The notes: generated by a model not told the origin, from the letters alone. A stretch of 64,000 bases of DNA from an uncultured Thermoleophilia bacterium (GCA_963844235.1 CAWJNF010000005.1:65899-129898), one strand, 5' to 3'. Numbered from the stretch's first letter, positions 14,942 to 57,459 are shown. Numbers and translations are program-made.

Positions 14942-15002
14942 CGGTCTCGGGCTCGCCGCCGCCTTGAGGTCAGACTCTGCGCATGCCGCGACCCTGCGAG
15001 GC

Positions 15003-16127: not shown

Positions 16128-16219
16128 GACCGTCCAAGAGACTACCAGATAGTCGTCTGATGGACTACTGAATGTAAGTCCAACGAGACGCAACGCCGGG
16201 CATGCTCTAGATTCCGCGC

Positions 16220-17284: not shown

Positions 17285-17294
17285 CATCCTTGGG

Positions 17295-26480: not shown

Positions 26481-26553
26481 GCCGGAGTAGCTCAGCTGGC
26501 AGAGCACTCGCCTTGTAAGCGAGATGTCGCGGGTTCGAGTCCCGCCTCCGGCT
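26481..26553 (+). tRNA. tRNA-Thr (anticodon UGU)
   Basis: Cloverleaf checked by hand: acceptor GCCGGAG/CTCCGGC, anticodon stem CTCGC/GCGAG with loop CTTGTAA, T-arm GCGGG-TTCGAGT-CCCGC. No encoded CCA. Confidence 0.9.
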
Positions 26554-37989: not shown

Positions 37990-37992
37990 CCT

Positions 37993-38724
37993 CTAACCGC
38001 GCGCCTGATTCCTCCCGCGGCGTGGGCGCATTGCGTGCAGGGTCGAGCGGATGGGCGCCGAGTGCCTGACGTTTCCGGCCTTCGACCACTGGCGCCGGCG
38101 GTCGACGCAGACGACCTGCGTCTCGACGGGGGCCGTGACACCGAGGTGGGCGGCAAGGTTGGCCAGCGTCTGCTCCCAGAAGCGGTCCTCCACGCGGTGC
38201 CCGCCGAGAGCGAGTCCGAGCTCTGTCAGGGGGTCCTGCGCCCGTACGAGCAGTTGTGCCTGAGCCACGGTCTCCCCATCCTGCTCGTGGGCGCTGAACG
38301 TGATCCAGCCGGCGAGCATGTGACCCTGGGGCGTCATCTCCGTGAACGACACGTCGTCGGCGTGGAGTGTCATCACACCGGTCGAGAGCTTGAGCCCGGC
38401 GGGTCCGGCCGCCTTGATCAACGCGACCTCGCCCGGCTCGATGCCGGTGAGCGACGGGTAGAAGGTGTTCCCTTCCGGCCAGAACTCGGCGAACCGTTCC
38501 TTCCAGATGCCGATCACCTCTGCCGGGGTGAGCTGCGAGCCCTCCAGCCGGACGCGGTACGTCTTCTGCCACATCTTCCCGAAGCCCTGGAGCGGGCCGA
38601 GCAGGCGCTTGCCCTCGACGAGGTTGGCGGCTCCCTCCGGCACGGACTCGACGTGCAGCGTCGAGACCGGCTTCGCCCAGTGCCCTGCGTCGCGCGGTGT
38701 CTCGTTCATCGTCTCCTCCTTCAC
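37993..38724 (-). CDS. DUF1990-like protein
   Basis: 243-aa ORF with good composition. Family assignment is from memory of the ...FGKMWQKTYRVRL... type. The start abuts the STAS stop. Confidence 0.6.
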   Translation of the reverse strand: MKEETMNETPRDAGHWAKPVSTLHVESVPEGAANLVEGKRLLGPLQGFGKMWQKTYRVRLEGSQLTPAEVIGIWKERFAEFWPEGNTFYPSLTGIEPGEVALIKAAGPAGLKLSTGVMTLHADDVSFTEMTPQGHMLAGWITFSAHEQDGETVAQAQLLVRAQDPLTELGLALGGHRVEDRFWEQTLANLAAHLGVTAPVETQVVCVDRRRQWSKAGNVRHSAPIRSTLHAMRPRRGRNQARG

Positions 38725-39075
38725 TCAGGCGACGGCTGCGAGCGCGTCGGCCTCCGAGTCGTAGATTCCGATGGCTTCGTCGAGGCGGGTGAGCTCGAAG
38801 ATCTGCCGGTAGTGCTCGTTGAGGCCGACGGCGAGCAGCTTCTGCTTCGCCCGATTCGCTCGCACGAGCACGGTGACGAGCAGTCCGATCCCGCTCGAGT
38901 TCATGTACTCGAGCTCGCTGAAGTTGAGCACGAGCGCCCGCACTTCCTCGCCTCCCGCGCGGGCGTAGGCGTCCATCAGCGCTTCCTCGCTTGCGGCCGT
39001 GAGCTCGCCGCGTACGTCCACGACCCGGGCGCCGTGACCGGCGTCCCGCACCTCCAGGTTGAGCGTCGTCTGCAT
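38725..39075 (-). CDS. STAS-domain anti-sigma-factor antagonist (RsbV/SpoIIAA-like)
   Basis: 116 aa; LVLNFSELEYMNSSGIGLLV with the phosphorylatable Ser context. Confidence 0.85.
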   Translation of the reverse strand: MQTTLNLEVRDAGHGARVVDVRGELTAASEEALMDAYARAGGEEVRALVLNFSELEYMNSSGIGLLVTVLVRANRAKQKLLAVGLNEHYRQIFELTRLDEAIGIYDSEADALAAVA

Positions 39076-39088
39076 GCGTCCTCCTTCC

Positions 39089-39424
39089 TCAGCTCGCGTC
39101 CTCGTCCGGAAGGATCCGGACGAAGTCCGCGATGCGGGTGATCTCGAAGATCTCGCGGTAGTGGTCGGTGAGGCCTCGGGCCTCGAGCTCCACGCGGTCA
39201 CGGCGTCCCTTCGCAAGCAGCCCGACGAGGAGCGCAATGCCGGTCGAGTTGATGTATCCGACGCGGCTGAAGTCGAGTGTGACGACCCGCGCCCCGTTGC
39301 CCGTCGCCTCCGCGTAGGCGGCTTCCAGCGCAGCTTCGGCGCCACTGTCGACGTCGCCCTCGAGCTCGACGACAGCCGTCTCGGCCGCCGGCGACACGCG
39401 CGCCTCAAACCGACTCGTCTGCAT
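39089..39424 (-). CDS. STAS-domain anti-sigma-factor antagonist (second copy)
   Basis: 111 aa; VTLDFSRVGYINSTGIALLV. Its start overlaps the upstream gene by 20 nt. Confidence 0.85.
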   Translation of the reverse strand: MQTSRFEARVSPAAETAVVELEGDVDSGAEAALEAAYAEATGNGARVVTLDFSRVGYINSTGIALLVGLLAKGRRDRVELEARGLTDHYREIFEITRIADFVRILPDEDAS

Positions 39425-41024
39425 CCACGTCTCCTCCCAGCCGGAACGCGAGCTCGAGCGTGTGGCTCTCGCCCTCGGTCCACGTCTCGATGTCGTCAGC
39501 CATGTGCTCGATCAGAAACAGGCCCCAGCCGCGTGGCTTTTGCTCGCCCGCGAGCTTCGCCTCGAGGTCGGGTCGTTCGGGCTCGACGATCGGGCGCGCT
39601 CCGCCGCCGTCCGTGATTCGCACACGGAGCCGCTCGCTGTCGGCGAGCACCTCGATGGCAACAGGCACCTCGGGTCGTGAGTCGTTGCCGTGCTCGATCG
39701 CGTTCATGGCAGCCTCGGAGACGGCTGTCCGCAACCGTTCGAGCGTCGTCGCCGGAACGGCGAGTCGCGCGACTGCCGTCGTGACACGCTCCATGGCCTC
39801 CCGCTCGTTGCCGGGCACGCTCGCCAGCTCGAATGCGGCGAGCACCGTGCCGTTTCCGCCTGCAGAGGTCACCGGCTGCGGCGCCCGTTCGAGCGCGACA
39901 AGCGTGATGTCGTCCTCCTGCTCCCAGGCCGAGCCCGTGAAGCGGTCGAGCTCAGCGAGCAGCCCCTCGACCGGTGAGGTCGAGGCGGTCGAGAGCCCCA
40001 TGAGCTCCCGCAGGCGCGGGAAGCCGAACATCTCGCCGCCCGGATCGTGCGCCTCCACGAGGCCGTCCGAGTAGAGGAGCAGGCACTCGCCGGGCTCGAG
40101 CACGGCCTCCTTCTCGTCGTACTCCATCTCCGGCATCAGGCCCAGCGGCATGCCCGTTGCGCGAAGCTCCACCGAGCCGCTCGCCGTGCGCACGCACGGC
40201 AGGTTGTGGCCGGCGTTCGCGTAGCGGAGCACCCCGGTCGACGGCTCGAGAACAGCGAAGAGGCACGTGACGAACATCTTCGGCGGCATGTCGGGGCAGA
40301 GCAGGTCGTTCGCTCGGCGCAACACCGCCGCGGGGGAGGACTGTCGCTGCGACGTAGCCCGCAAGATGCTCCGCGTCGCCGCCATCACCATCGCGGCCGG
40401 GACACCCTTGTCGGTCACGTCGCCGACCACGAAGGCGACTCGGCCACCGTCGAGCTCGATGACGTCGTAGAAGTCGCCGCCGACCTCTCGGGCCGGCTTG
40501 TAGTGGGCCGAGATCTCCCAGCCGGCGAGATCGGGGAGCTCGCGCGGAAGGAAGTTCTGCTGGATGAGCCGGGCGACCTCGAGCTCCTGCTCGATCCGCT
40601 CGTGCTGACGCGCCTGTATCTCCTGCTCGCGCACGAGCTGGCCGACCCGGAGTGCCGGCGCGGCCTGGGCCGCGAGGCTGTCGAGCAGCCGGCGATCGTC
40701 CGTCGAGTAGTCCTGATCCGAGAGCCGCGGCCCGAGGTTGAGCAGGCCGATCAGCTCGCCCTGGCTGACGAGCGGCACGACGAGCTTCACACCCGTCGCT
40801 CGTAGCGCCGCGAGCGCCGGCGAGTCGAGGTCGAGGCTGTCGACGTCGATTGCGCCAGAGGCGCTCTCGAAGTACGCGACGAGCGGGTCGTTGGGAGCGA
40901 TGTCGAGATCGAGCGCTCCGGCAGGCGTCGCCGGCGTGTGCGCGGCGAGATCTCTCGCTTCGTCCGACGGAAGCGCGGGATCCTGTGGCTGCGCTCGACG
41001 GAAGATGTGGGACAAACGCGTCAT
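39405..41024 (-). CDS. GAF / PP2C (SpoIIE-type) phosphatase / RsbW-like HATPase fusion protein
   Basis: GAF-like LVVPLVSQGELIGLLNLG. PP2C motifs GGDFYDV...VGDVTDKGVPAA...NAGH...LYSDGLVE. C-terminal EAAMNAIEHGN...ITDGGGA...GWGLFLI. Confidence 0.85.
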   Translation of the reverse strand: MTRLSHIFRRAQPQDPALPSDEARDLAAHTPATPAGALDLDIAPNDPLVAYFESASGAIDVDSLDLDSPALAALRATGVKLVVPLVSQGELIGLLNLGPRLSDQDYSTDDRRLLDSLAAQAAPALRVGQLVREQEIQARQHERIEQELEVARLIQQNFLPRELPDLAGWEISAHYKPAREVGGDFYDVIELDGGRVAFVVGDVTDKGVPAAMVMAATRSILRATSQRQSSPAAVLRRANDLLCPDMPPKMFVTCLFAVLEPSTGVLRYANAGHNLPCVRTASGSVELRATGMPLGLMPEMEYDEKEAVLEPGECLLLYSDGLVEAHDPGGEMFGFPRLRELMGLSTASTSPVEGLLAELDRFTGSAWEQEDDITLVALERAPQPVTSAGGNGTVLAAFELASVPGNEREAMERVTTAVARLAVPATTLERLRTAVSEAAMNAIEHGNDSRPEVPVAIEVLADSERLRVRITDGGGARPIVEPERPDLEAKLAGEQKPRGWGLFLIEHMADDIETWTEGESHTLELAFRLGGDVDADESV

Positions 41025-42290
41025 TGCTGTGCTCCTGTTGTACGGCCACGCCGTCCGGCGGGCGTTACGGCATCCGTTACGGCGGGACGAAGCCAGAGCG
41101 ACACACGCTCGGGCTCCAGCGTTCCCCGCACCACGCTGGTGAGCTCGCCGTGGAGCGTGGCGATGTCGATCTCGTCGCGCAGCCGGGCGGAGAAGGCCTC
41201 GAGCGTGCGCTGGGCGTCATAGCGGCGGCGGTAGAAGCGCCGGTCGACCGCTCGCTGAACTCGGGCCCGCACGGGACGAAAGAGCGCGGCCACGGCGAGC
41301 GTGGAGACGGCGATGGCCAGGTCGGAGCCACCGCCGAAGGAGGAGAAGACCTCCTGGAGCCCGAGCACGGTCCCGAAGTAGACGCCGACGAGCAGCGCCG
41401 AGACGGCGGCGTACACGACGGCCCGGTTGACAATCCGGTCGATGTCGTAGAGCCGGTAGCGAAGAATGGCGATTCCGGCCGCCAGCGGGATCGTGGCGAT
41501 GGCCAGGAGCAGCAGCGGCTCCCAGACGGCGCCATCGTCGATGTACCAGAAGAGGAGCGGGCCGCTCGCAAAGGTGGCGCCCACGAGGCCGGCGGCGCTC
41601 GCGACCCACTTGAGCTGCTGGCGCTCGAGCCCTGTTGCCCGGCGGAAGCGGAGGACGAGCGAGGCTGCCGAGACGACAATCCCGACGAACATGAGAATGG
41701 AGGCGACAGTCGCGACGCTTTCGAGCGCGTCCGCGAGAGGGCCTTCGGCTGCGTATGGATTCGTCAGAGGCTCGAAGTCCTCGAGCGTGTGGGGGCTGAA
41801 CATCTCTCCGAGCAGAGCGAGCACGATGGCGCCGACAACGATCCAGACGACAGGCACCCAGCGCCTGGACAGCAGGCGACCCTCGGGGAAGAGGAGGAAG
41901 AGGAGTGTCGCGGCGAGGAACAGCGGTGGCAGAAGGAGCCACGACCCCAGCCAGGCCATGGTCTCGCCGGCCGGAAGGGAGCCGGGCTCGGTCAGCAGCG
42001 CGTAGAGGGCGTACTGGTTCGCGAAAGCAGCGACCGCGAACAGGCTTCCCAGGCCGACGAAGATCCAGCCGATCGGGTTCTGAGGGCGGCGAGAGGCGAT
42101 GAGGGCGCCGACGGCCGGAAAGGTCAGCGACGACGATACCGAACAGGGCGTCGCCGATCCGTGACGACCCGAAATTGCTGACGCCAGGCGTCGAGCTGTT
42201 GAGGATCAGGAAGACGAGCGCGGCGAACGCCAGCGCGATCGCGATCGCGCAAACCGCCCAGGCCAGACGGGTCGTGCCCCGCCGGCTCAT
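41021..42290 (-). pseudogene. membrane-module paralogue P7 (one frameshift near 42121-42128)
   Basis: [13 protein letters not shown]...GIVV, then shift, then LTFPAVGALIASRRPQNPIGW...LLFLLFPEGRLLSRRW...ERQQLKW...LRYRLYDIDRIV...[19 protein letters not shown]...SLWLRP. ATGA overlaps at both ends. Confidence 0.75.
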
Positions 42291-43505
42291 CGCTGCACCT
42301 TCGGTCCTCGGAGCCAGAGCGACACCTGATCGGGTTCCAGCGTTCGCCCCACCACGTCGGTGAGCTCGCCCTGGAGCGACGCGATGTCGACCTCGTCGCG
42401 GAGGCGGGCCGCGAACGCCTCGAGCGTCCTCTGCGCGTCGTAGCGCCGGCGGTAGAAGCGCCGGTCGACTGTCCGCTGGACTCGGGTCCGCAATGGGCCG
42501 GAAGAGCGCGGCGACGGCGAGCGTGGAAACGGCGATGGCCAGGTCGGAGCCGCCGCCGAAGGATGAGAACACCTCCTGGAGCCCGAGGACGATCCCGAAG
42601 TACGCGCCGGCGAGGAGCGCCGAGACCGCGCCGTAGACGACCGCGCGGTTGACGATACGGTCGAGCTCGTAGAGGCGGTAGCGGAGGATTGCGATCCCGG
42701 CCGCGATGGGGATGGTGGCGACTGCAAGCAGCAGAACCGGCTCCCAGGGCCCGTCGTCGATCCACCAGAAGAGGAGCGGGCCGCTGGCCCACGCGACAGC
42801 CACCAGGCCCGCTGCGCTCGCCACCCATTTGAGCTGCTGCCGCTCGAGTCCTGTCGACCGGCGAAACCGCAGGATCAGCGAGATCGCCGACGCGATGAGG
42901 CTTGCGAGCATCAGCACGAACGCGACGTTCGCGACGATCTCGAGGGCATCGGCAGCCGCACCTGCGACTGCGTACGGGTTCTCGATCGACTCGAAGTCCT
43001 CGAGCGGGCCGGGCAAGAACATCTCGGCGAGCAGGGCCAGCACGATCCCGCCCGCGGAGGCCCAGAGGACCGGCAGCCAGCGCCGCGAGAGAAGACGGCC
43101 GTTGGGGAAGAGGAGGAAGACCAGGGTTCCGCTCAGGATGAGCGGAGCCAGGAAGAGCCAGGACTGCACCCAGGCCATCGCCATGCCTGCCGGCAGCGCC
43201 CCCGGCTCGGCGACGAGCGCGTAGGTCGCGTACTCGTTTGCGAAGGCCGAGATCGCGAACATCGCTCCCAGGCTGAGGAAGATCCAGCCGATCGGGTTCT
43301 CGGGTCGGCGGGAGGCGACGAGCGCCCCTACGGTCGAGAACGTGAGCAGAGCGACTAGGAAGAACGCGTTACCGACCTGCGACCCGATCGTGCTCTCGTC
43401 GGAGTTCGAATGGTTGAGAAAGACGAACGCAAGAGCGGCCGAGGTCAGTACGACGGACGCCGCGAAAGCGCCCCAGGCGAGGCGGGTAGCCGTGCGGCTG
43501 CTCAC
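42287..43505 (-). pseudogene. membrane-module paralogue P6 (one frameshift near 42498-42501)
   Basis: Intact frame from GTG 43505 through ...STLAVAALF. An extra C in CTCTTC(C)GGCCC breaks the frame; the tail [27 protein letters not shown]...SLWLRG continues in the next frame to 42287. Confidence 0.75.
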
Positions 43506-44842
43506 CGCTCCACCTCGGCGGCGAAGAGCTGACGCTCGCCCTGCACGCCCTTGAGCTCACGGGTGCGAGGGTCTTCGAAGCTCACGCCGGAGCCGGCCAC
43601 GAGCTCGCGGACAGTGCTCGAGACGAGGATCTCGCCGGCGCCGGCCATCTCGGCGACCCGCGCTCCGATGTGCACCGCGATGCCGCCCAGGTCGTCGCCG
43701 TGGAGCTCGCACTCTCCTGCGTGGACACCGGCGCGGAGCTCGAGACCGAGCGGCCGGACGCTGTCCCGAACGGCGGCGGCGCAGCGGATCGCCTGTGTCG
43801 GGCTGTCGAAGGCCGCGAAGAAGCCGTCGCCGGTCGTCCGGAGCTCGCGACCGCGGAAGCGATCGAGCTCCCTTCGCATCAGCTCGTTGTGCCGCTCGAG
43901 CAGCTCCTTCCAGCGACTGTCGCCGAGCCTCGTCACGAGCTCCGTCGAGCCGACGATGTCGGTGAAGAGCAGGGTCGTGAGCACACGCTCGGGCTCGGGA
44001 GCAGTCCGGCGCGCACCGGTCACGAGCTCCTCGACCTCGCCGACGAGCGTCTCCGCGTCGCCGGCGAACGGCCAGTGGTCGTCCCCGGGCAGCTCGACGA
44101 GTCGCGCGCCGTGGATGTGATCGGCCAGGTAGCGGGAGTGACCGACGTCGACGAACCGGTCGCCCCTCCGGTGGAGGACGAGCGTTGGCGCCCGGAGCCC
44201 GTCGAGCCGATCGCGCACGTCGAGCGCGGTGTTCATCCGCATGAGCGAGACCGCGCGCCCGGGGCTCGCTCCGAGCCGCAGGAGCCGGGCGAACCAGCTC
44301 CGGTAGGCCTCGTCGTCTGCCAGGCTCGGCGCAAGAAGCGCGGCGCCGTCGGCGGAGCCCCAGCCCTCCTCGGTCGCCGAAAGGTAGAGCTGGATCGCTG
44401 CCGGCGACCAGCCGAGGTCGTAGCCGTCGCCCTGTGTGAACTTCGCCAGGCCGGCGTAGAGGGCGAGAGCCGCCACGCGCTCGGGGTGCTCGGCGGCGAA
44501 GAGCGCGGCCAGCGCAGCGCCGTCGAACACGCCGAGGAGGGCTGCGCGCTCGGAGCCGGCCGCGTCGAGCACGGCGCTGATATCCCCGATCCGCGCCTCC
44601 GGGGCGGGTAGGCCGTCCACGGGATCGGACATGCCCGTGCCGCGCTTGTCGAACACGATCAGGCGCGAGAAGGCCGCGAGCCGCCGCAGGAAGCGGGCAG
44701 ACGCCGGCAGCTCCCAGCTCAATTCAGCGTGCGACAGGAACCCCGGCACGAGCATCAGATCGACTGGCCCCTCGCCCACGACCTGGTACGCGATCGTGAC
44801 CTCGCCGCTGCGGGCGTAGCGCGTGTCGACTTGTGGCGTCAT
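43502..44842 (-). CDS. alpha/beta-hydrolase-fold / class III adenylate cyclase fusion
   Basis: N-terminal VDLMLVPGFLSH...VFDKRGTGMSD...; C-terminal LLFTDIVGSTEL...TTGDGFFAAF...LRAGVHAGE. Intact. ATGA and GTGA overlaps with the flanking paralogues. Confidence 0.85.
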   Translation of the reverse strand: MTPQVDTRYARSGEVTIAYQVVGEGPVDLMLVPGFLSHAELSWELPASARFLRRLAAFSRLIVFDKRGTGMSDPVDGLPAPEARIGDISAVLDAAGSERAALLGVFDGAALAALFAAEHPERVAALALYAGLAKFTQGDGYDLGWSPAAIQLYLSATEEGWGSADGAALLAPSLADDEAYRSWFARLLRLGASPGRAVSLMRMNTALDVRDRLDGLRAPTLVLHRRGDRFVDVGHSRYLADHIHGARLVELPGDDHWPFAGDAETLVGEVEELVTGARRTAPEPERVLTTLLFTDIVGSTELVTRLGDSRWKELLERHNELMRRELDRFRGRELRTTGDGFFAAFDSPTQAIRCAAAVRDSVRPLGLELRAGVHAGECELHGDDLGGIAVHIGARVAEMAGAGEILVSSTVRELVAGSGVSFEDPRTRELKGVQGERQLFAAEVER

Positions 44843-46055
44843 GTCGCACGACCCCGGAGCCAGACCGAGACATGCGCAGGTCGCATCGCCTCGTCGGCCG
44901 TGGCAGCGAGCTCCGCCTCGAGCGCGGCGAGCTCGACCTTCTCGCGCACGTGGCTTGCGAACGCCTCGAGGGTGCCCTGAGCGTCGTACTTGCGCCGGTA
45001 GAAGCGGCGATCGACGAGGGACTGGATGCGGTTCCGGACCGGGCGAAAGAGCGCGAACGCGATCAGCGTCGACGCCGCGATCGCGAGATCGCCGCCTCCG
45101 GCAACCGACGAGAACACCTGCTGGAAGAGCAGGACGATGGCGAGGTAGAGGCCGGCGAGGGCCACGGTCGCCGTGCCGTAGACGAGCGTGCGGCGGATGA
45201 TCAGGTCGATGTCGTAGAGGCGGTACCGCAAGATCGAGATGGTGGTCGCGACCGGGATACCGACCACAAGGGCGATCACCGCGACGCCCCAGAGAACGTC
45301 CGCGGCCAGTCCCGGGTCCACTACGGCGACGAGCAGAACCGCCGCTATCGGAGCGGCGACGACGAACGCAAGCCACTTGAGCTGCTGACGCTCGCACGCC
45401 TCTGGCCGCGCCGGAAGCGAAGCGTCAGCGAGAGCAGTGCCGCTGCGAGGCTCGCGGCAAGGAGCGCTGCGCCCGCTATGCCGAATCGCCGTTGAGCACG
45501 CCTTCCATGTCGATGCCGACGGGGTTGGCGAGCCCTCCGGTGAGCGGATCGGGGTGAAGAGCTTCCGCCAGGACGATGACCACCGTCCCGACCGCAGCCA
45601 GCCACACAGCGAGGCGCCACCGAGGCGTGAGCGGTTGGCCCTCCGGGAAGAGGAGCAGGAGAGATGGCACTGAGCCCGAACGCGGGCCAGACAGCCCATT
45701 CGTACATCCACGCGAGCACCTGAGGTACCGGCAGCGACCCAGGCTTGGCCGCGACGATCTCCGCCGCGGTCTCGGCGATGCCGACGACGCCCCAGACGAG
45801 CGAGAGGCTGCACATCAACCAGCCGACGGCATTCTCGGGCCGGCGAGAGGCCACAAGCGCGCCGGTCGTCGCGAACACGGCGAGCCCGAGGTCACCGAGA
45901 ATCTTGAGCCAAAGCGGAGCGACGTCAGCCAGCGGCGCGACGTCAGCCTCCGGCGCTGAAGAAGCACCGTAGACGGCGAGAGCGATCCCGAGCCCGGTAA
46001 GGGCCAGGTAAGCCCAGACGGACCAGGCGAGGCGGGTTGTTGTGCGCGTGCTCAC
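44839..46055 (-). pseudogene. membrane-module paralogue P5 (three frameshifts: ~45657, ~45485, ~45400)
   Basis: MSTRTTTRLAWSV...SRRPENAVGW...AIS, shift, LLLFPEGQPLTPRW...NPVGIDMEGVLNG, shift, FGIAGAALL...LRFRRGQ, shift, ERQQLKW...LRYRLYDIDLII...[19 protein letters not shown]...SVWLRG. Confidence 0.7.
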
Positions 46056-47223
46056 GTTCGTTTTTCAGGCGGCCGTAACCAGAGCGAGACCTGCGCGGGC
46101 TGCAACGTCTCCCGCACGACGCCTCGGAGCTCCTCGCCGATCGCGTCGAGATCGATCTCGTCGCGCAGGCTGGCGGAGAAGCTCTCGAGGGTTCGTCTGA
46201 GCATCGTAGCGACGGCGATAGAACCGCCGGTCTACCAATTGCTGGATACGCCGCCGCGCAGGCCCGAACAGCGCGGCGACCGCGAGCGTCGAGACGGCGA
46301 CGGCGAGGTCGGAGCCACCCGCGAACGAGGAGAACACCTGTTGCAGGAGGAGCACGATGCCGAAGTAGAGGCCGGCCAGAGCTACCGTGGCGACGCCGTA
46401 GACGAGGGTTCGCTTGAGGACCAGCTCGAGGTCGTACAGCCGGTAGCGGAAGATCGCGATGCCTGCCGCGATCGGAAGACTCGAGAGTCCTATGGCTCCG
46501 AGCACGGACAGCACCTCGCCCGAGTCGATGAGGAAGAACGAGGCGATGAAGATCGGGGCCGCCGCGAGGAACCAGCGGAGCTGCTGCCGCTCGTCCGCCC
46601 CTGCAGATCGATATCGGACGAACACGGACACCACTGCGAGCAAGAGCGCGAGCATCGTCCCGAGCCACGCCCAGCCGCCGTCGGAAAACAACGGGAACTC
46701 GATCTCGATGGGCTTGTCTGCCCCTGTAACGCTCGAGAGCGTGCCCGGCCCGAGGGCGGTTCCCAGCCCCATCACGAATAGCGAGGCAGCGGCGAGCCAG
46801 GCGACGGGACGGAATCGTGGGGAGGTCAATTGCCCGGTCGGAAACAGGAGGAGGAGAAACACTCCGAGCGCCAGCGCAGCCACAGGAGCCATATCCGCCA
46901 CCAACCCTGCCCAGGAGCCGCCCGGCAGCGAGCCCGGCGACTGTCGAAGTGCGTAGATCGCGTATTCCTGGCAGAACAGCGCGATCTGAATTCCGAGTCC
47001 TGCCGCGAGGAAGATCCAGCCGACCCGGTTCCCGAACCGGCGCGACACGATCAAGGAGCCAACGGCCGAGTAGGCGAGGATCGAGACGATGAGGGCCGGG
47101 TCGGTCGCCCGCGGGAGGTCAGAGATCTCGAGTGAGCGCGTGAGGCGCCCACAGCGCGAGCCCCCCGGCGGCGAACGCGACGGAGAGCCCGAGGAGCGAC
47201 CAGGCTACGCGGCCGCTCGTCAC
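46052..47223 (-). pseudogene. membrane-module paralogue P4 (two frameshifts: ~47128-47140 and ~46196)
   Basis: VTSGRVAWSLLGL..., shift, ...IVSRRFGNRVGW...LLLLFPTGQLTSPRFRP...ERQQLRW...FRYRLYDLELV...[13 protein letters not shown]. An extra A (CAG-A-CGA) then garbles the tail. The corrected frame ends in a GTGA overlap with P5. Confidence 0.7.
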
Positions 47224-48425
47224 CGCTTCTCCTGAGCGGGCCGAAGCCAGAGCGAGACGTCGGAGGGTTGCATGGTGTCGCGAACGACGGTGCGTAGCTC
47301 GGTGCCGAGGGCGTCCAGGTCGACCTCGTCGCGGAGGCGGGCGGAGAAGCTCTCGAGTGTTCGCTGGGCGTCGTAGCGGCGGCGGTAAAAGCGCCGGTCG
47401 ACCGCGTGCTGGACCCGCCGGCGGGCAGGGCCGAACAGCGCCGCGACGGCGAGCGTCGAGACGGCGACGGCGAGGTCGGAGCCGCCCGCAAAGCCGCTGA
47501 AGACCTGCTGCAGAGCAAGCACGATGGCGAAGTAGAGGCCTACGAGCCCGGCGGTCACGACGCCGTAGACGAGCGTGCGCCGGATGATCACGTCGATCTC
47601 GTAGAGCCGGTACCGGAGGACGGCGACGCCGACGGCGATCGGTAAACCGATGAGGCCGACGAGAAAGGCCGCTCCGGCGGGGCCCGAAAACTCGAAGAAG
47701 TACTGGATCGGCAGCGTGGCGAGCAGCAGCCCCGCTGCTCCGGCGAACCACTTGAACTGTTGCCGCTCCTCTCCGCGGGAGCGGCGGAACCTCACGAGGA
47801 GATGGACCGCGGCCAGCGCCACGCTGAGGAGACAGATCGCGACGATCAGGTCGGCGGCGGCGGAGTAGCTCTCGCTGCTGGTCACCGCGAGCGGGTTCTC
47901 GAAAGCTTCGAACGGCGGGTCGAGATGGCCGGGCGACGTCGAGAGGATCGTCCAGACGAGGGCGAAGCCGATCAGAACGCACGTCGCGAACCAGCGCCAG
48001 CGCCGCGACGGCAGGCGGCCTGCCGGAAAGACGAGGAGGACCAGGAAGACGCCCGCCATCAACGTGGTCCAGCTGCCGCCGCCGACGACCGCAGCCGCCG
48101 CGCCGGCGGGGAGCCCCGCCTCGGGCTTCGCGAGGAGCGCCAGCTCCGCATAGAAGTCGAGTACGCCTCCGAGAAGAAGCCCGACGCCTGCGAGCGCCAG
48201 CGCCCAGCCGACGAGGTTGCCGGGACGCTTGAGCGTCAAGATCGCGCCGACGACGGGAAACGTGAGCACGAGAAGGATGTCTGGACCGAGACTTGCCCGC
48301 TCGGTGGGCTGGTACGACCCGTTGAGCGCGATTAGGAGTGCGAGCGCGACGAGGCCGAGGGCCACCAGAACGGTGACGACCAACAGCAGGCGGGCGAGCC
48401 TGGCTGCCGGCACACGCGTGCTCAT
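47220..48425 (-). CDS. membrane-module paralogue P3 (only copy with an uninterrupted frame, 401 aa)
   Basis: MSTRVPAARLARLLL...LKRPGNLVGW...LVLLVFPAGRLPSRRWRW...FENPLA...RFRRSRGEERQQFKW...LRYRLYEIDVII...[65 protein letters not shown]...VSLWLRP. About 10 TM helices. Confidence 0.8.
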   Translation of the reverse strand: MSTRVPAARLARLLLVVTVLVALGLVALALLIALNGSYQPTERASLGPDILLVLTFPVVGAILTLKRPGNLVGWALALAGVGLLLGGVLDFYAELALLAKPEAGLPAGAAAAVVGGGSWTTLMAGVFLVLLVFPAGRLPSRRWRWFATCVLIGFALVWTILSTSPGHLDPPFEAFENPLAVTSSESYSAAADLIVAICLLSVALAAVHLLVRFRRSRGEERQQFKWFAGAAGLLLATLPIQYFFEFSGPAGAAFLVGLIGLPIAVGVAVLRYRLYEIDVIIRRTLVYGVVTAGLVGLYFAIVLALQQVFSGFAGGSDLAVAVSTLAVAALFGPARRRVQHAVDRRFYRRRYDAQRTLESFSARLRDEVDLDALGTELRTVVRDTMQPSDVSLWLRPAQEKR

Positions 48426-49635
48426 TCCGACCCCTTCAACCACAGCGAGACCCCGGTCGGACGCATCGTCTCGTCGACGACGGCCACGAGCTCTGCGCGC
48501 AGCGTGTCGAGGTCGACCTCCTGCCGCAGCCGGCCGCTGAAGGCCTCGAGCGTGCGCTGGGCGTCGTACCCGCGGCGGTAGAAGCGACGGTCGACCGCGG
48601 TTTGAATTCGTCGGCGCGCCGGCCCGAACAGTGCGGCAACGGCGAGGGTCGAGACGGCGACGGCGAGGTCGGAGCCGCCGGCGAAGGACGAGAAGACCTG
48701 CTGCAGGGCGAGCACGATGCCGAAGTAGAGGCCGGCGAGGGCGGCGGTCACGGCGCCGTAGACGAGCGTGCGGCGGATGATCACGTCGATCTCGTAGAGG
48801 CGGTACCTGAATATCGCGAATGCCGATGGCGAGCGGGAGAGCCACGAGGCCGGCGACCAACGGCGCGGCGCCGATCGAAGACTCCCCGTCGTGGACGAGA
48901 GCGTGATGAATCCAGCTGCGAGGAGGGTGGCCGCGTAGGCGAACCACTTGAGCTGCTGGCGCTCGTCTCCCCTGGCACGGTGAAGGCGAAGCACGAACGA
49001 GCTCGCCGACGCGAGGATGCTGACGACGAGCAGCGTCCAGCCGGTGGAGCCTTCGAGCGAGTCGAGGAACCCTCCGGCGCGGTCGATCACGAACGGATTC
49101 TCGATCGAGGTGATGTCATCGAAGCCGCCCAGCGGGCCCGGCGAGAACGAGCCGAGGAAGAGGACGACGAGGGAGCCCGCTGCGAGCCACGCGACGGGTC
49201 GCCAGCGCCGGGACGGCAACGGACCGTCCGGGAAGAGGAGGAGGAGGAACGCTGCGGTGATACCCAGTCCGACGTAAGGCGTCCACGACCAGAGCCAACC
49301 CAACGCCTGACCGCTGGCAGCGAGCCGGGGTTTGTGAAGAGGGCGTAGATCGCGTAGCCCTGGGCGAAGCCGGAGATGGCAAAAGCACCCCCGGCGGCAA
49401 TGAGGATCCAGCCGATCGCATTGCCGGTCTGGCGCCTGGCGATGAGGGCTCCGACGGCCGAGAAAGGAAGGAAGACGAGTGCGAAGAGCGCCTCGTCGTA
49501 CTTCTCCTCGCCGTCCGGGAGCGGCGTCGAGAGGTTGAGCGCCAGGAAAACCAGGCTGAGGGCGGTGAGCACGAGCGAGAGCCGACGAGACCCAGGGCCA
49601 CCGGACCCAGATCGTGGTTGCCCCGGTCTCCTCAT
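48422..49635 (-). pseudogene. membrane-module paralogue P2 (three frameshifts: ~49313, ~48903, ~48819)
   Basis: MRRPGQ...ARRQTGNAIGW...NPGSLPA, shift, GQALGWLWSW...LLLLFPDGPLPSRRWRP...ERQQLKW...AAGFI. The stretch ALVHDGESSIGAAPLVAGLVALPLAIGI is read only in another frame. The original frame resumes at AIFRYRLYEIDVII...SLWLKG. Confidence 0.7.
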
Positions 49636-50114
49636 GCGAACCAGCCTGCTTCTGCCCGCCGGGTATGGGCCGGGCTTCGTCGGAACCGCCACGTGCGGAC
49701 AGCCACGACCTGAGCGATCAGGACGATGGCCAGCGCATTGACGACGTGCAGGGCAGCGAGCTTCGGTACGTGTCCTGGGCCAGGACGAGCAGGCTTTGCA
49801 CGATGGTCAGGACGGTGAGCAGGCCGGACGGTCGGAGGATCGCGCGCGACTGCCCGGCGATGCCGTGAGCAGGATGAGCGCGGCGATGAACGTGAGCACG
49901 CGCCGAGAATCCGGTGGGCACCGAAGCTCTGCCCATCGAAGACGGCTAGGCCTGCGAGCAAGAACTGGGTTACCAGCCCCGCGAGGAACGCGACGACGAA
50001 GATCCACTGAAGGGTTCGGGCTGCACGCGGCTGGGGCCTCCAGTGGAATCGTCGCCTCGTTGTTCGCGGCGACGAACCGAGCTTCGCCACGGGGCTGGTG
50101 CGAAGATCGCTCAC
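49632..50114 (-). pseudogene. small ~4-TM membrane protein (DUF6220-like, from memory) with three same-direction frameshifts (~49900, ~49864, ~49772)
   Basis: The first 72 and last ~45 codons are coding-like in one frame (...TLQWIFVVAFLAGLVTQFLLAGLAVFDG...; ...PKLAALHVVNALAIVLIAQVV...). The middle hydrophobic pieces RVLTFIAALILLTA and IAGQSRAILRPSGLLTVLTIVQSLLVLAQD sit in the other two frames. Confidence 0.55.
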
Positions 50115-51281
50115 CGACCGCTCCTGAGCCAGAGCGTGACGTGAGCCGGCTGCATCGTCTCCTCGACGACGCGGCCGAGCTCATCTCGCAGCGTGTACAG
50201 GTCGATCTCGTGCGCGCAGCCGGCCGCTGAACGCCTCGAGCGTGCGCTGGGCGTCGTAGCGGCGACGGTAGAAGCGGCGGTCCACCGCGGTTTGAATTCG
50301 TCGGCGCGCCGGCCCGAACAGTGCGGCGACGGCGAGGGTCGAGACGGCGACGGCGAGGTCTGAGCCGCCCGCGAACGACGAGAAGACCTGCTGCAGGGCG
50401 AGCACGATGCCGAAGTAGAGGCCCGCGAGCGCGGCGGTCGCGACGCCGTACACGAGCGTTCGGCGGACGATCAGATCGATGTCGTAGAGGCGGTACCTGA
50501 GAATGGCGAAGCCGGCGGCGATCGGAATGGCGGTGAGTGCTGCGACCGCCAATGCGCCGGCGAGCTCCTCGAAAACGGCCGAGCCCGTGTCTTCGGCGAA
50601 GCCCTCCATCAAGAACGCGACGGCGAAGAGCACGCCGGTGCTTGCCACCAACTTGAGCTGCTGACGCTCGACGGCTCCCGAGCGCCGGAAGCGCACGACG
50701 AGCGCCGCCGCGGCGAGTACGAGGCTCGGGAGGAGGATGAACCAACCGGCAGTTGCGGCGCTCCCGAGTACCTCAGGTGCGCCCTCGATGCGGAGCGGGT
50801 TCGCGACGTGCTCGAACGGTTCCGTGAGCATCTCGGGCTGGAGAACGCCGACGGCGTAGGCGAGAAGAGCGACAGCCTGGAGCCACACGAGGGGTCTCCA
50901 CCGGCGCGATGGGGGCACCCCCGTCGGGAACAGCAGCAGGATGAGCACCCCCGCGAAGAAGGCTATGGCCCAGACGTTCGCCCCGACGAATGCCGCGTAC
51001 TCGCCTCCGCGGAGGGAGCCGGGCTCCGCGACGAGCGCGTGGTAGCCGTACGCCGTGGCGAACACCGCGACGGCGAGGACGACGCCGACGACGCAGAAGA
51101 GCCAGCCAATGGGGTTTCCGGGCCGTCTCCTCGCGATCGTCGAGCCGACGCCGGCGAACGCGATGGCTGGAATGAGGACGACGGCGTCGTCCCAGCGACC
51201 GTCCACCACGCCGAAGGCGAGCGTGCCCGCAGCGAGCGCGAGGGACAGGCCGAGCGGCACCCAGGCGAGCGCCGCGCTCAT
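50111..51281 (-). pseudogene. membrane-module paralogue P1 (one frameshift near 50210-50216; as sequenced the ORF ends at 50181)
   Basis: MSAALAWVPLGL...ARRRPGNPIGW...LILLLFPTGVPPSRRWRP...RFRRSGAVERQQLKL...LRYRLYDIDLIV...[24 protein letters not shown]. An extra C then shifts the frame. The corrected tail DEIDLYTLRDELGRVVEETMQPAHVTLWLRSGR ends in a GTGA overlap with the next gene. Confidence 0.7.
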
Positions 51282-51368
51282 GTGGGAAGGACGGAGTGCC
51301 GTGATCAACGGATTCTCCGACACGGCGCCGTCACGCGCCACCTCGTGGACGCGAAGCGTCTCACGGGT

Positions 51369-51392
51369 GGAACGCTGCCGCGGCAGCGTTCC
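51369..51392. promoter_or_regulatory. perfect 24-nt palindrome GGAACGCTGCCG/CGGCAGCGTTCC in the divergent intergenic region
   Basis: Read directly from the sequence. Lies between the P1 start (51281, -) and the regulator start (51438, +). Confidence 0.4.
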
Positions 51393-51397
51393 GGGTC

Positions 51398-51416
51398 CGT
51401 TACGGCGACCGTAACG
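51398..51416. promoter_or_regulatory. second palindrome CGTTACGG-CGA-CCGTAACG
   Basis: 8-bp arms, 6 nt downstream of the first palindrome in the same intergenic region. Confidence 0.35.
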
Positions 51417-51437
51417 CGATCGAGGTACGTTGCGCTC

Positions 51438-54222
51438 GTGAGCAGCTTGACGATCGCGCTTCTCGGGCCGCCGCGTATCGAGGTGGACGGCCTGCCGTTA
51501 CGCGTCGACACTCGCAAGGCGGTGGCGCTGCTGGCCTACCTGGCAGTCACCGGCCGGCCTTCCCGGCGCGAGCTGCTGGCCGATCTGCTCTGGCCCGAGT
51601 ACGAGCCGGCCAAGGGACGTGCGGCGTTACGCCGCACGTTGTCGGTGCTTCGCGCCGCCCTGGGCGCTCGCTGGCTCTCGGCGTCGCGCGACATCGTGAG
51701 CCTCGACGAGCACGGCGTCAACCTGGATGTCGATCGCTTCCGCCGGCTGCTCGTCGAGCGCCGGGCGCACGAGGCGGTCGCGCTCTACCGCGGCGACTTC
51801 CTCGAGGGGTTCGAGCTACGCGACAGCGCGGAGTTCGATCACTGGCAGATCGCAGAGGCTCAGGCGCTGCACCGCGAGCTCGGCGCCGGCCTCGAACAGG
51901 TGGCGCTCGAGCGGGCCGAGGCCGGAGATCTCGAGGCGGCGATCGTGCATGGGCGCCGCCGGCTCGAGCTCGATCCGCTGGCCGAATCGGGATATCGCCT
52001 CCTGATCAGGCTATACGCCTGGGTGGGCGATCGGGGCGCCGCGATCGAGCAGTACCGGGCCTGCGTCCGCACGCTGCATCGCGAGCTCGGCGTCGCCCCG
52101 CTCGCCGAGACGACCGAGCTCTACGAGCAGGTCAGCACCGGCAAGATCGTCCAGCCGGCCCCGCAGCCGCCGGCAGCGGCGACGCCTGTGCACGCTCCGG
52201 TCGCGCTCCCGCTCGTGGACCGGGACGCCGAGCTCGCGAGCCTGGTCTCGGCCTGGCAGAGCGCCGCACCCGACGGCCGCCTCGTCGTGATCGAGGGTGA
52301 GGCCGGCATCGGCAAGACGCGGCTCGCCGACGAGCTCGCGGCTCGGGCCGGCGCGGCTGGAGCCGTGCCTGTCGTCGTGCGCGCGGCCGAACCGGAGGCG
52401 GAGCTTCCGTACGCCGCCGTGCTCGACGCGATGCGACAGCTCAGCGCTCGGCCGGACGGTGCGCAGCGAATCGCGACCGTCCCGGCCCTGATCGCAGCGG
52501 AGGCCGCACGCCTCGTGCCGGAGGTGGCCGACCTGCGCCCGGGCCTGCCACCGGCGCCGCCGACAGACAGCCCCGGAGCGGGCAGCCGCTTCCTGAGCGC
52601 GCTCGCTGATGTCCTCACAGCCTTCACCGCCGGCACTCCGCCCGGGCTCATCGTCGTGGACGACGCTCAGTGGGTCGATGCCGCGTCGCTCGAGGTGCTG
52701 AGCTTCCTGGTGCGACGCCTCGAGGGCCGCGCGCTCTGCATCCTGCTGTCGTGGCGAGCCGAGGAGCTGCCGCTGGGCCACGCACTCCGCGAGCTGCTGG
52801 CAGACGCACGGCGCTCGAGACGGGGGCTTCTCGTGGCTCCGAAACGCCTCGGTCTGCGCGGCCGTAACGGAGCTGGCACGGGCAGCGGGCGCCGTATCGG
52901 AGATCGATCGGCTCTACGCCCAGACCGCCGGCCTGCCCCTCTTCGTCGTCGAGTACCTCGCGGCTCTCGGCGAGACGGCGGGTGGCGACGTGCCGGAGGG
53001 CGTGGCCGAGCTCCTGCGGCACCGGGCGGCGGCGGCGAGCGAGGGGGCTCGCCAGGTGCTCGCGGCAGCCGCGGTGCTCGGAACGTCCTTCGACCTGGAT
53101 GCGATCCGCGAGACGAGCGGGCGTAGCGACGAGGAGACCGTGGCCGCCCTCGAGGAGCTCGAGGTACGAGGGCTGCTCAGCGAGGACGGCGAGAGCTACG
53201 CGTTCGCGCACGACTCGATGCGGTCCGTGATCTACACCGACACGAGCCTCGCTCGGAGGCGCTTGCTCCACCGGCGTGCCGCCGAGGCGCTCGCCGCGAG
53301 GTCGCCAAGCCACCGCGTCGAGCGTGCGGCGGTCATCGCAGAGCAGTACCGGCTGGCAGGACGAGACGCCGACGCGGCCGAGTATCACCGCCTGGCAGGT
53401 GAGCGGGCCCGAGAGCTGTTGGCGCCCTCGGAGGCGCTCGCACACTTCCGGGCCGCCCTCGCGCTCGGCCACCCGGACGAGGCCATCCTGCACGAGGCTG
53501 TCGGCGAGCTGCTCATGCTCATGGGCGAGTACGGGTCGGCGCTCACGAGCCTCGAAGCCGCCGCCGCTCTGGCGACCGATCGAGCACAGCTCGGCCGGAT
53601 CGAGCACGAGCTCGGCGCCGTTCGTCATCGGCAGGGTGAGTGGGAGCTCGCCGCAGCACGCTACGAGGCCGCCGCGGCCGCGCTCGAAGGCGACGTGGGG
53701 CAGCTCGCGCGCATCGAGGCCGACCGCAGCCTCAACGAGCACCGGAGGGGTCGTGGCGAGGCCGCCACCGCACTGGCGCACAGGGCGCTCGAGCTTGCGG
53801 AGCGGGCCGGGGACACCGCGGCGCTCGCGCAGGCGCACAACATCCTCGGAATCCTGGCCTCGAGCGACGGCGCGCTCGGCGAGGCCCGCACGGAGCTCCG
53901 CCAGAGCCTGGAGCTCGCCGGCGCGCTCGGCGACCCCGGTGCGCGCGTGGCGGCGCTGAACAACCTCGCGCTCCTCGAGCGAACAGAGGGGGATCTCGCC
54001 GAGGCGCAGCGGCTCACGCGGGAGGCCCTTGCGCTGTGCGTGGCCCAGGGCGATCGTCACCGCGAGGCGGCACTGCACAACAACCTCGCGGATCTCCTGC
54101 ACGCAGCCGGCGACCCTGACTCTGCGATGGCGGAGCTCAAGCAGGCCGTGGCGATCTTCGCGGAGATCGGCGGCGACGCCGCCGAGGCTCAGGTCGAGAT
54201 CTGGAAGCTCGTCGAATGGTGA
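51438..54222 (+). pseudogene. AfsR-like SARP (wHTH+BTAD) / STAND ATPase / TPR regulator, one frameshift near 52850-52860
   Basis: VSSLTIALLGPPRIEVDGLPL...; BTAD YRGDFLEGF...LIRLYAWVGDRGAAIEQY; Walker A VIEGEAGIGKTRL; Walker B LIVVDDAQWVD. After ...ELLADARRS... the coding signal moves to the +1 frame (...AAVTELARAAGAVSEIDRLYAQTAGLPLFVVEYL...). TPR-like repeats run to 54222. Confidence 0.75.
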
Positions 54223-54262: not shown

Positions 54263-54270
54263 GTCCAGAG

Positions 54271-54354
<84 letters not shown>

Positions 54355-57016: not shown

Positions 57017-57077
57017 CGTCCCATCTTGGACTACGGCGCCGCTCCGATGGTTCCGCCTGCCGCGGGCTACACTGTGC

Positions 57078-57428
<351 letters not shown>

Positions 57429-57431
57429 ACG

Positions 57432-57459
57432 GAAAGAGCCCTGGTAACGGGGCTCTTTC
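57432..57459 (+). terminator. intrinsic terminator GAAAGAGCCC-loop-GGGCTCTTTC
   Basis: 10-bp stem immediately after rnpB, followed by T-rich CTTTCTATGTCTCTT. Confidence 0.6.

Follow-up and report, generated by a model that had tools for sequence, protein, structure and literature searches.

A seven-copy array of membrane modules beside a partner-switching phosphatase/kinase: a candidate sensor bank with a split GAF domain

Partner-switching phosphatases are central stress regulators, and how species-specific signals reach them is, to our knowledge, largely undescribed. The locus analysed here poses this question directly: what do seven tandem genes for polytopic membrane proteins contribute to the single phosphatase/kinase gene that follows them? 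The window, i.e., the whole stretch of DNA that was analysed, comprises 64,000 nucleotides from an uncultured Thermoleophilia bacterium (GCA_963844235.1 CAWJNF010000005.1:65899-129898). On balance, we favour the reading that the seven paralogues, P1–P7, are a functional, anciently diverged sensor bank that docks in trans on one partner-switching phosphatase/kinase by way of a split GAF domain. On this view, a single switch of the stress type probably receives interchangeable inputs from the array.

Organization and integrity of the array

A tblastn search with P3 as query returned seven colinear minus-strand copies at a spacing of ~1.2 kb, confirming that the seven tandem paralogues described in an earlier note, made from the sequence alone, are real and lie where it had placed them. 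The regularity ascribed to the array was only partly upheld: the copy number of seven stood, but the copies do not form a uniform run, as a DUF6220 and a hydrolase-cyclase gene are interposed. The gene order is P1, DUF6220, P2–P5, hydrolase-cyclase, P6–P7, PP2C/kinase, STAS, STAS. Each gene junction, from P1 through P7/PP2C, consists of a 4-nt ATGA or GTGA overlap, the P7 stop overlapping the PP2C start (ATGA). The features of the locus are as follows.

51420–54222, plus strand: SARP/AfsR-like regulator (BTAD, AAA_16, TPR), divergent; two ORFs in the window
50114–51281, minus strand: P1, a paralogue of the sensor module, frameshifted once in its cytoplasmic tail (extra base near 50212)
49632–50114, minus strand: DUF6220-like membrane protein, small, overlapping P1 and P2 by 4 nt each; rich in indels in the assembly
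48422–49635, minus strand: P2, a paralogue of the sensor module, frameshifted three times (near 49268–49311, 48890–48903 and 48819)
47220–48425, minus strand: P3, 401 aa, the sole intact copy; 10 TM helices
46052–47223, minus strand: P4, a paralogue of the sensor module, frameshifted twice (near 47143 and 46196–46199)
44839–46055, minus strand: P5, a paralogue of the sensor module, frameshifted three times (near 45661, 45480 and 45394)
43502–44842, minus strand: 446-aa protein with an alpha/beta-hydrolase and a class III nucleotidyl cyclase domain, inside the array (Abhydrolase_1 2e-11, Guanylate_cyc 7e-10)
42287–43505, minus strand: P6, a paralogue of the sensor module, frameshifted once (extra base, 42491–42500); intact, 405 aa, in contig L081
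41021–42290, minus strand: P7, a paralogue of the sensor module, frameshifted once (extra base, 42128); intact, 422 aa, in contig L081
39405–41024, minus strand: GAF (without alpha1/beta1), SpoIIE-type PP2C phosphatase and HATPase_c_2 (RsbW-like kinase), a product of 539 aa on which the module tails are proposed to dock
39089–39424, minus strand: STAS protein 1, 111 aa; presumed phosphatase/kinase substrate
38725–39075, minus strand: STAS protein 2, 116 aa
37993–38724, minus strand: conserved 243-aa protein with no assigned function, found 3' of the STAS genes in relatives
36574–37989, minus strand: FAD amine-oxidase/phytoene-desaturase-like oxidoreductase; conserved end of the gene cluster

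Pfam matches in the window to SpoIIE (5e-53), HATPase_c_2 (5.7e-21) and STAS (5e-16), together with the second STAS gene, identify, by domain content, a partner-switching set of the RsbU/RsbW/RsbV type, encoded together. The operon yielded no identifiable gene for a sigma factor, the downstream genes being those of the 243-aa protein and the FAD oxidoreductase, and the PADLOC anti-phage profiles found no match in the module, PP2C, cyclase or 243-aa protein. The tie of the hydrolase-cyclase to the modules is weaker than that of the PP2C, its basis being adjacency in 7 loci only. The SARP/AfsR-like regulator adjoins arrays in 22 of 77 related loci; its window sequence has one extra base at 52855 relative to L027, which may be a frameshift that splits the gene.

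The earlier note overlooked that six of the seven copies are frameshifted in this assembly, P3 being the only intact ORF. There are 11 single-base frameshifts, one each in P1, P6 and P7, two in P4, and three each in P2 and P5. Such a number, together with the concentration of indel differences in the array and the presence of two of the sites in an independent long-read assembly (L083), is what would be expected if most copies in this strain were decaying pseudogenes, the array a graveyard, and P3 (elsewhere a few others) the functional remainder; recent inactivation of some copies is conceivable. However, there is no in-frame nonsense codon in any of the seven copies, and third-position substitutions, counted in the corrected frame against two relatives, were 2–5 times as frequent as second-position ones in each of them, a codon-position signature indicative of purifying selection throughout. 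Moreover, P6 and P7 are intact in L081, a short-read (Illumina) contig 97.1% identical to the window, which differs from it by one base exactly at the P6 and P7 frameshift sites and lacks the extra bases. L082 likewise has none of the 11 frameshifts but carries its own elsewhere, including within P3, which is intact in the window, and the same noise is seen in read-through 'fusion' proteins of other long-read assemblies. An Illumina MAG locus (L001) contains three intact module copies with 4-nt overlaps. Because L081 is intact at the P6 and P7 sites and all copies bear the mark of purifying selection, the window frameshifts are most likely long-read consensus errors, and wholesale decay of the array is very improbable. 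Repeat collapse, which the note had named as a possible refutation, was also checked; the array is not such an artefact, since the N-terminal parts of the copies are diverged (25–46% amino-acid identity, about 50–60% nucleotide identity) and the array was found again in independent assemblies, short-read contigs included. More generally, paralogue arrays in long-read MAGs can contain dense indel errors, through which spurious pseudogenes and spurious fusion proteins enter databases.

The membrane module and its kinship to histidine-kinase sensors

Although the module had been called an orphan, 26,832 cluster representatives were retrieved at E ≤ 1e-3, mostly from soil Thermoleophilia, other Actinomycetota and Chloroflexota. 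The claim that it contains no recognisable domain was correct in that no Pfam, NCBIfam or PADLOC family scored above threshold, and neither Pfam nor NCBIfam has a model for the family. The motifs listed earlier for each copy (e.g., SRRPxNPIGW, ENP, RFRRxxxxERQQLKW and VSLWLR) were indeed present in all seven upon alignment, but the tail is less than 'near-invariant', the RYRLY-to-end portion of the module being 55–83% identical among copies. The AF2 model of P3 (pLDDT 86) and the positive-inside rule both agree with the previous estimate of about 10 TM helices; the predicted topology is N-in/C-in, with 33 Lys plus Arg residues on odd loops versus 2 on even loops. In the P3 model, a long cytoplasmic helix (317–367) is followed by a helix at 370–385 and a low-confidence VSLWLR end, and the tail modelled alone had a pLDDT of <50.

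Polytopic proteins of 10 TM helices in which no domain is recognised could in principle be transporters, permeases or other non-signalling membrane proteins that lie near signalling genes by chance, and one JGI homologue (P0015) is in fact labelled 'MFS family permease'. Nevertheless, no transporter match was obtained in Pfam or NCBIfam, and Foldseek against the PDB found no transporter fold, the best matches being generic helical bundles with TM ≤ 0.36. BLASTP aligned P3 residues 49–386 with a GAF-HisKA_3 kinase of Deinococcus peraridilitoris (WP_015231682.1) at 31% identity (E 7e-43), and in Rubrobacter the module is fused to GAF-PP2C. By homology, then, the whole module corresponds to the half of GAF-HisKA_3 histidine kinases that serves as their membrane sensor, a kinship that the earlier note had suggested, and a transport function is extremely improbable. 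The Deinococcus kinase shares RxPxNxxGW, FPxGxLPSRxWR, ERxQFKW and LRYRLYDID, followed by the signalling helix and GAF alpha1, but its chain runs on into a complete GAF, HisKA_3 and HATPase_c, whereas the window modules stop after GAF beta1 and are multiplied. Accordingly, Pfam detected no kinase domains in P3, the chain of which ends 15 residues past GAF alpha1, and the modules are, as the note had it, stand-alone and amplified.

The sensor domain of GAF-HisKA_3 kinases has no name of its own. HisKA_7TM (PF16927) did not match P3 even at E ≤ 1, and a precomputed PF16927 match was present in only 2 among the 120 homologues listed. Membership in PrsK, the XrtA/PEP-CTERM kinase (TIGR02916), was rejected, as P3 scored 18.7 bits against a cut-off of 300 bits (E 5e-4, profile positions 209–350 only).

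Proposed coupling to the phosphatase/kinase through a divided GAF domain

Among the 77 related loci, 24 contain 1–11 tandem modules adjacent to STAS genes and to a gene for GAF(partial)-PP2C-HATPase_c_2. The orthologous PP2C, 53–83% identical, is directly downstream of a module in 22 of the 77; in L001 and L085 another small gene lies between the last module and the PP2C. Of the 29 loci in which the module occurs at least twice, 21 have a PP2C neighbour, and the reverse search, from the PP2C, found modules upstream. Most single-copy loci (45/48) have no PP2C orthologue within 10 kb, yet the module retains the same tail in L021, the one such locus that was read; therefore, the tail must also have other partners or another role. 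Natural fusions of ~915 aa, in the order module, GAF, PAS, PP2C (SpoIIE), occur in Rubrobacter; such proteins are encoded on dozens of independent short-read contigs, and another fusion (P0128) consists of module, GAF, SpoIIE and HATPase_c_2. The link behind the proposed signalling in trans to the phosphatase/kinase is thus supported by gene order and in-frame fusions, while docking as a physical event, its effect on regulation, the nature of the signals and the eventual output are what we infer.

The fusions offered a view of the GAF domain that the separate proteins do not. A profile of the fusion segment aligned colinearly with the complete, solved GAF of 4MCW (profile 2–155 on chain 13–169, E 4.4e-6), the module tail falling on alpha1/beta1, whereas a profile built from the PP2C N-terminus alone extended over no more than the final third of GAF domains (E ≥ 0.1). 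Similarly, the Pfam GAF match covered positions 65–133 for the PP2C N-terminus and 8–133 with the tail prepended, and the tail alone did not match GAF (PF01590). Neither stand-alone protein, in other words, has a complete GAF in one chain; positions 8–133 are covered only by natural fusions or by concatenation. The break point lies in the fusion linker after beta1, where stand-alone modules end and stand-alone PP2Cs begin. With the window's own tail and PP2C N-terminus concatenated, the Pfam GAF score rose by only about 5 bits, and the same concatenation, searched as a single sequence against the PDB, found no full-length GAF. Taken together, these profile alignments identify the soluble tail as the alpha1/beta1 start of a GAF domain, the rest of which is the PP2C N-terminus. 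The earlier note's working hypothesis of signalling in trans to the phosphatase/kinase is thereby made more specific.

The mechanism that we propose is concrete and physical, namely, trans-completion of the GAF domain. The paralogues would be 10-TM intramembrane or envelope sensors, as in some GAF-HisKA_3 kinases and the Rubrobacter membrane PP2Cs, in which TM1–8 would form the fast-evolving sensing part, and the Arg-rich cytoplasmic loops, TM9–10 and the long signalling helix the conserved transducer, ending in a tail that offers the GAF first helix and strand only. In the translationally coupled gene downstream, a PP2C of RsbU type is joined to a kinase of RsbW type, and the N-terminal GAF of the product lacks exactly these two elements. 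A sensor tail would complete the PP2C GAF in trans and so hold the enzyme at the membrane. The balance between phosphatase and kinase action on both STAS proteins would then be set by way of the GAF and the coiled-coil linker, as in a partner-switching output, with the seven sensors as alternative inputs competing for one output enzyme. Control of PPM phosphatases through GAF/PAS-to-coiled-coil connections provides mechanistic precedent (PMC12143880). It is possible, and we suggest it tentatively, that this amounts to natural split-domain signalling, in which any of up to 11 fast-diversifying sensors plugs its alpha1/beta1 into one phosphatase/kinase, allowing combinatorial, competitive selection of inputs.

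The modules may instead be genuine PP2C/kinase sensors that are coupled by other means, such as the Arg-rich cytoplasmic face, the signalling helix, or hetero-dimers with module-bearing kinases or phosphatases, the tail being a dimerisation element or a vestige of gene fission. Synteny and fusions indeed give a functional link rather than a contact surface; the conserved motifs are mostly on the cytoplasmic face and common to the kinase-fused homologue; the tail is kept in modules without a nearby PP2C; and the AF2 prediction of the natural fusion P0297 is of low confidence, with pLDDT <50 over residues 371–669 (the GAF/PAS region). Such coupling would nonetheless leave unexplained why the break comes precisely behind beta1, with alpha1/beta1 and nothing else missing from the PP2C; a GAF deprived of this N-terminal helix and of its central strand is not likely to fold by itself. 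The tail is also strongly constrained in stand-alone proteins, its residues being at least 90% conserved among 115 such homologues. We therefore consider coupling by another surface unlikely, though not far-fetched, and retain docking through the split GAF as the preferred reading.

Comparison with known systems

A family of membrane sensors that has no name but is very common (~27,000 sequence clusters; present in abundant soil Actinomycetota and Chloroflexota) is indicated by the locus as an input device of partner switching. The same parts form an evolutionary series, in which they are joined first to a kinase, next to a phosphatase, and are finally found divided and in multiple copies. PrsK (TIGR02916) and LytS-type (5TMR-LYT-GAF) kinases also have a multi-TM sensor followed directly by a GAF; the window modules have no kinase domains, score far below the PrsK cut-off and are not members. 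Natural fusions of the two window proteins are the Rubrobacter 'SpoIIE family protein phosphatases' (e.g., P0281, P0297), with the same membrane module (42% identity to P3), tail and GAF remainder, but these are single polypeptides with an extra PAS and no HATPase_c_2, and P0297, in the sole context examined (contig L080), is a solitary gene and not part of an array.

In Bacillus subtilis, SpoIIE combines a 10-TM N-terminal domain with a PP2C that acts on the STAS protein SpoIIAA, the kinase being SpoIIAB. It is thus likewise a membrane-anchored partner-switching PP2C with a 10-TM region, the TM regions being alike by description only, but it is one chain with one sensor and has no GAF. Rv1364c of M. 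tuberculosis and OsaC of S. coelicolor, as in the window, have a PP2C fused to an RsbW-like HATPase, with GAF/PAS inputs and STAS partners (PMC12143880). They differ in being soluble with complete sensor domains in cis, whereas the enzyme in the window has only part of its input GAF, and the sensors are encoded apart from it as membrane proteins.

The RsbR proteins of the stressosome are soluble globin-STAS proteins that, in a large complex, signal via the kinase RsbT in the Bacillus sigma-B pathway (RsbU). In the stressosome, a single PP2C with a STAS protein as its target receives input from several paralogous sensors, whose N-terminal sensing parts vary and whose C-terminal connector is conserved (PMC12143880, and established knowledge). 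The logic proposed for the window is the same, with several paralogous sensors converging on one PP2C, but here they are integral membrane proteins and the connector is a GAF fragment. If true, the array would represent natural protein-fragment complementation used for signalling, and RsbR-like paralogy in membrane-protein form.

Layout of the array and its neighbors

A tblastn search with the product of 47220–48425 (P3) as query placed seven colinear copies of the membrane module on the minus strand at 41.0-51.3 kb, matching the seven copies (P1 to P7) described in the earlier note, and all of the motifs listed there were found in the three-frame translations. The earlier observation is real but needs important corrections. 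The architecture does recur seven times, but the copies do not form a homogeneous run: other genes are interspersed, as listed here.

Features of the array and its surroundings (window positions)
57077-57434, plus strand: RNase P RNA class A (253 bits)
54270-54354, minus strand: tRNA-Leu(GAG), between the SARP gene and lexA
51420-54222, plus strand: SARP/AfsR-like regulator (BTAD, AAA_16, TPR), divergent from the array
49632-50114, minus strand: small DUF6220-like membrane gene between P1 and P2, with a 4-nt overlap at either side
43502-44842, minus strand: alpha/beta-hydrolase-cyclase gene, between P5 and P6
39405-41024, minus strand: GAF-SpoIIE(PP2C)-HATPase_c_2 gene (the PP2C gene), directly after P7
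After the PP2C gene: two STAS genes
36574-38724, minus strand: conserved 243-aa gene, then FAD oxidoreductase, after the STAS pair
26481-26553, plus strand: tRNA-Thr(TGT)

A 4-nt ATGA or GTGA overlap was present at all junctions from P1 through the PP2C gene, which indicates one translationally coupled operon. In all relatives with downstream genes examined (L001, L082–L085), the STAS pair is followed by a conserved protein of 236–251 aa, for which a domain search returned no match, and a FAD amine-oxidase-like oxidoreductase; both may belong to the system's output. Elsewhere in the window, G+C falls to 0.636 at 6001-8000, compared to ~0.70 in the rest, and the codon-position signal there is weak.

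A large family related to histidine kinase sensors

P3 could not be assigned to any Pfam or NCBIfam family, and the PADLOC defence models gave no match; its similarity to the N-terminal part of PrsK is weak (18.7 bits, cut-off 300). The module is nonetheless far from being the orphan it was called in the earlier note, since exhaustive phmmer retrieved 26,832 cluster representatives at E <= 1e-3, of which 6,064 reached E <= 1e-30, and the best 150 matches were nearly all stand-alone proteins of 390–420 aa. The genome matches, all in uncultured MAGs, belonged to Thermoleophilia (Gaiellales, Solirubrobacterales), other Actinomycetota, Rubrobacter and Chloroflexota, and literature searches found no description of the module. 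The likeness to the N-terminal sensor halves of kinases, pointed out in the earlier note, was confirmed by a Deinococcus plasmid gene, annotated as a 717-aa 'GAF domain-containing sensor histidine kinase', which is 31% identical to P3 residues 49–386 (E 7e-43). It retains all the module motifs but, unlike P3, runs on into GAF, HisKA_3 and HATPase_c domains.

Hydropathy and the positive-inside rule assigned P3 ten TM helices in an N-in/C-in orientation, in line with the earlier estimate of about ten, with 33 Lys and Arg residues on the odd loops and tail against 2 on the even loops. The AF2 model of P3 was all-helical (pLDDT 86, pTM 0.73), and a Foldseek search of the PDB with this model returned no related solved structure, the best matches being GPCR-like helical bundles (E >= 9e-3, TM <= 0.36). 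Most of the invariant residues face the cytoplasm; since the external loops are short, the signals sensed are suggested to be membrane or envelope cues.

Divergence of the copies and the origin of the frameshifts

Amino-acid identity among the copies is 25–46% in the N-terminal parts (TM1–8; 65% for P6/P7) and 55–83% in the C-module (RYRLY to the end). Third-position identity is 0.52–0.67 for most pairs, i.e., near saturation, so that the copies are old duplicates, and recent gene conversion is ruled out for most pairs as the cause of the conserved tail and C-module. The C-module is conserved through selection, with the possible exception of P1/P2 (third-position identity 0.77). Orthologues are patchy: in arrays further removed, they are clear for P3 alone (56–60%), and L004, a syntenic relative, has counterparts orthologous to P1 and P4; the remaining N-terminal parts match distant arrays at the paralogue level only. 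In L027, a syntenic locus 92% identical (9000-19200), a P2/P3 hybrid gene leaves one repeat unit fewer, and an additional P7-like copy lies between the cyclase and P6, which together indicate unequal crossing-over inside the conserved C-module. The copies per locus ranged from 1 to 11 among 77 related loci. The largest array seen, 11 tandem modules upstream of PP2C and STAS genes (L039, JAJPIP010000035.1), is labelled a Proteobacteria MAG, at odds with all other hosts, which may reflect mis-binning.

In the window assembly, P3 is the sole intact ORF among the seven copies. Frameshift-aware alignment located 11 single-base frameshifts in the array, namely 1 in P1, 3 in P2, 0 in P3, 2 in P4, 3 in P5, 1 in P6 and 1 in P7, and there was no in-frame stop codon in any copy. 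These lesions could mean that the copies are real, recent pseudogenes, but we consider this very improbable. When the window was compared with L027 and L004 (92% and 79% nucleotide identity, respectively), third-position substitutions in the corrected frame were 2–5 times the second-position ones in every copy, indicating purifying selection on all seven. Moreover, in L081, a JGI short-read contig with 97.1% identity across window 38701–43484, P6 (405 aa) and P7 (422 aa) are both intact; the only two net indels are extra window bases at 42491 and 42129, i.e., one base at each of the P6 and P7 frameshift sites. The long-read contig L082 (98.2% identical) lacks all 11 window frameshifts and has others of its own elsewhere, some within P3, and an Illumina Gaiella MAG contains three intact copies with 4-nt overlaps. 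On the strength of the codon-position signal and these three assemblies, assembly error is the best explanation of the frameshifts.

The indel discrepancies are concentrated in the array: 50 of the 55 indel events between the window and L082 fall inside 42.1–50.4 kb, and indel differences among independent same-species long-read assemblies (L082, L083) are ~15 times denser in the array than in its flanks. Most relatives come from 'MFD' MAGs, which were taken as long-read on account of their very long contigs, the platform being inferred. Two of the window sites are common to L083, a third long-read assembly, and examination of the frameshift sites for a homopolymer or a common sequence motif found neither. 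The DUF6220-like gene is likewise indel-broken in the window, while L082 encodes a 156-aa protein with a clean DUF6220 match. The SARP gene appears as two overlapping ORFs (50808–53126 and 52990–54222), and this split is probably another consensus error, since the window carries one extra base at 52855 relative to L027. Five database proteins of 362–618 aa (P0004, P0072, P0086, P0121, P0127), considered as module-module or module-PP2C fusions, were rejected as read-throughs of frameshifted long-read contigs; such entries could mislead surveys of domain architecture.

The probable PP2C partner and a proposed GAF domain split between two proteins

The earlier note had proposed signaling in trans to both the phosphatase/kinase and the cyclase, and this is supported in part: the former link has synteny and fusions in its favor. 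Of the 77 loci, 24 have an orthologous PP2C/HATPase gene (53–83% identical) no more than 10 kb from a module. In 22 of these it comes immediately after the last module, in the same orientation, and 23 of the 24 also have a STAS match; a reverse search from the PP2C recovered modules upstream. The gene is present in 21 of the 29 loci with at least two module copies, and at least three of the eight without it end at a contig edge; the SARP regulator occurs in 22/77 loci. A search with the C-terminus of the module joined to the N-terminus of the PP2C, and then one with its match P0137, retrieved natural in-frame fusions: module-GAF-PAS-SpoIIE proteins of ~915 aa, named Rubrobacter 'SpoIIE family protein phosphatase' by NCBI, from dozens of independent short-read contigs, and P0128, which joins module, GAF, SpoIIE and HATPase_c_2. 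Such fusions are classical Rosetta-stone evidence of a functional link, and module and PP2C are, in our judgment, very probably linked.

For the cyclase, the case is weaker: 7 loci have a homologous hydrolase-cyclase no further than 10 kb from a module, and at least one of these modules, that of L021, keeps the same tail. The N-terminus of the cyclase is an alpha/beta-hydrolase domain; in B. subtilis, the PP2C RsbP is activated by the alpha/beta-hydrolase RsbQ (PMC12143880). Small ORFs between the module and the cyclase or PP2C had no domain matches in L001 and L021, and the one in L085 encodes a SRPBCC (polyketide-cyclase-like) protein.

When the fusions were aligned with the stand-alone forms of module and PP2C, the modules were seen to end a few residues past VSLWLR. 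In the PP2Cs, the conserved '(L/V)DIAPNDP...' is preceded by a variable segment and, at the very start of the protein, by a short basic motif (M-T-x-L-x-x-x-F-R-R); this places the break within the linker of about 20 residues that the fusions contain. A profile built from the fusion segment aligned colinearly with the GAF domain of PDB 4MCW (profile 2–155 against chain 13–169, E 4.4e-6), pairing the tail 'DLDAL..LIEVIKETMQPTRVSLWL' with alpha1/beta1 'DLRNVLLFLTDLAKEIMEADRASIFLYD'. Two controls support this split-GAF assignment: a profile of PP2C N-termini only covered just the last third of GAF domains (E >= 0.1), and Pfam GAF, which matched the window PP2C from profile position 65, matched from position 8 when the P7 tail was prepended, the score rising from 32.9 to 38.3 bits. 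Among stand-alone homologues, conservation of the tail residues is 90% or higher. A phmmer search of the PDB with the joined window tail and PP2C N-terminus gave only weak matches, confined to C-terminal portions of GAF domains. In AF2, the tail of isolated P3 was modelled without confidence, and the natural fusion P0297, run with a mixed alignment, stayed below a pLDDT of 50 throughout its GAF and PAS portion. A stand-alone GAF adjoining a Rubrobacter module (L086) was considered as a second split partner, but its GAF is complete.

The relationship to kinase sensor halves, the operon, the shared gene order, the fusions, the GAF assignment and the place of the break are shown; the mechanism is inferred. 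The tail of the sensor would complete the GAF domain of the PP2C in trans; its docking would tether the enzyme to the membrane, and the docked tail may control the enzyme via a GAF-to-coiled-coil route, one suggested to operate generally in PPM phosphatases (PMC12143880). This control would determine how far the two STAS proteins are phosphorylated, and the seven paralogues would provide alternative inputs. We regard this account, trans-complementation included, as the best explanation, with moderate confidence; a more ambitious, combinatorial reading is put forward only tentatively. Partner-switching signaling with membrane input is of a known kind, and what is distinctive here is the split domain together with an array of interchangeable sensors, the logic of which resembles that of the RsbR paralogues of the stressosome.
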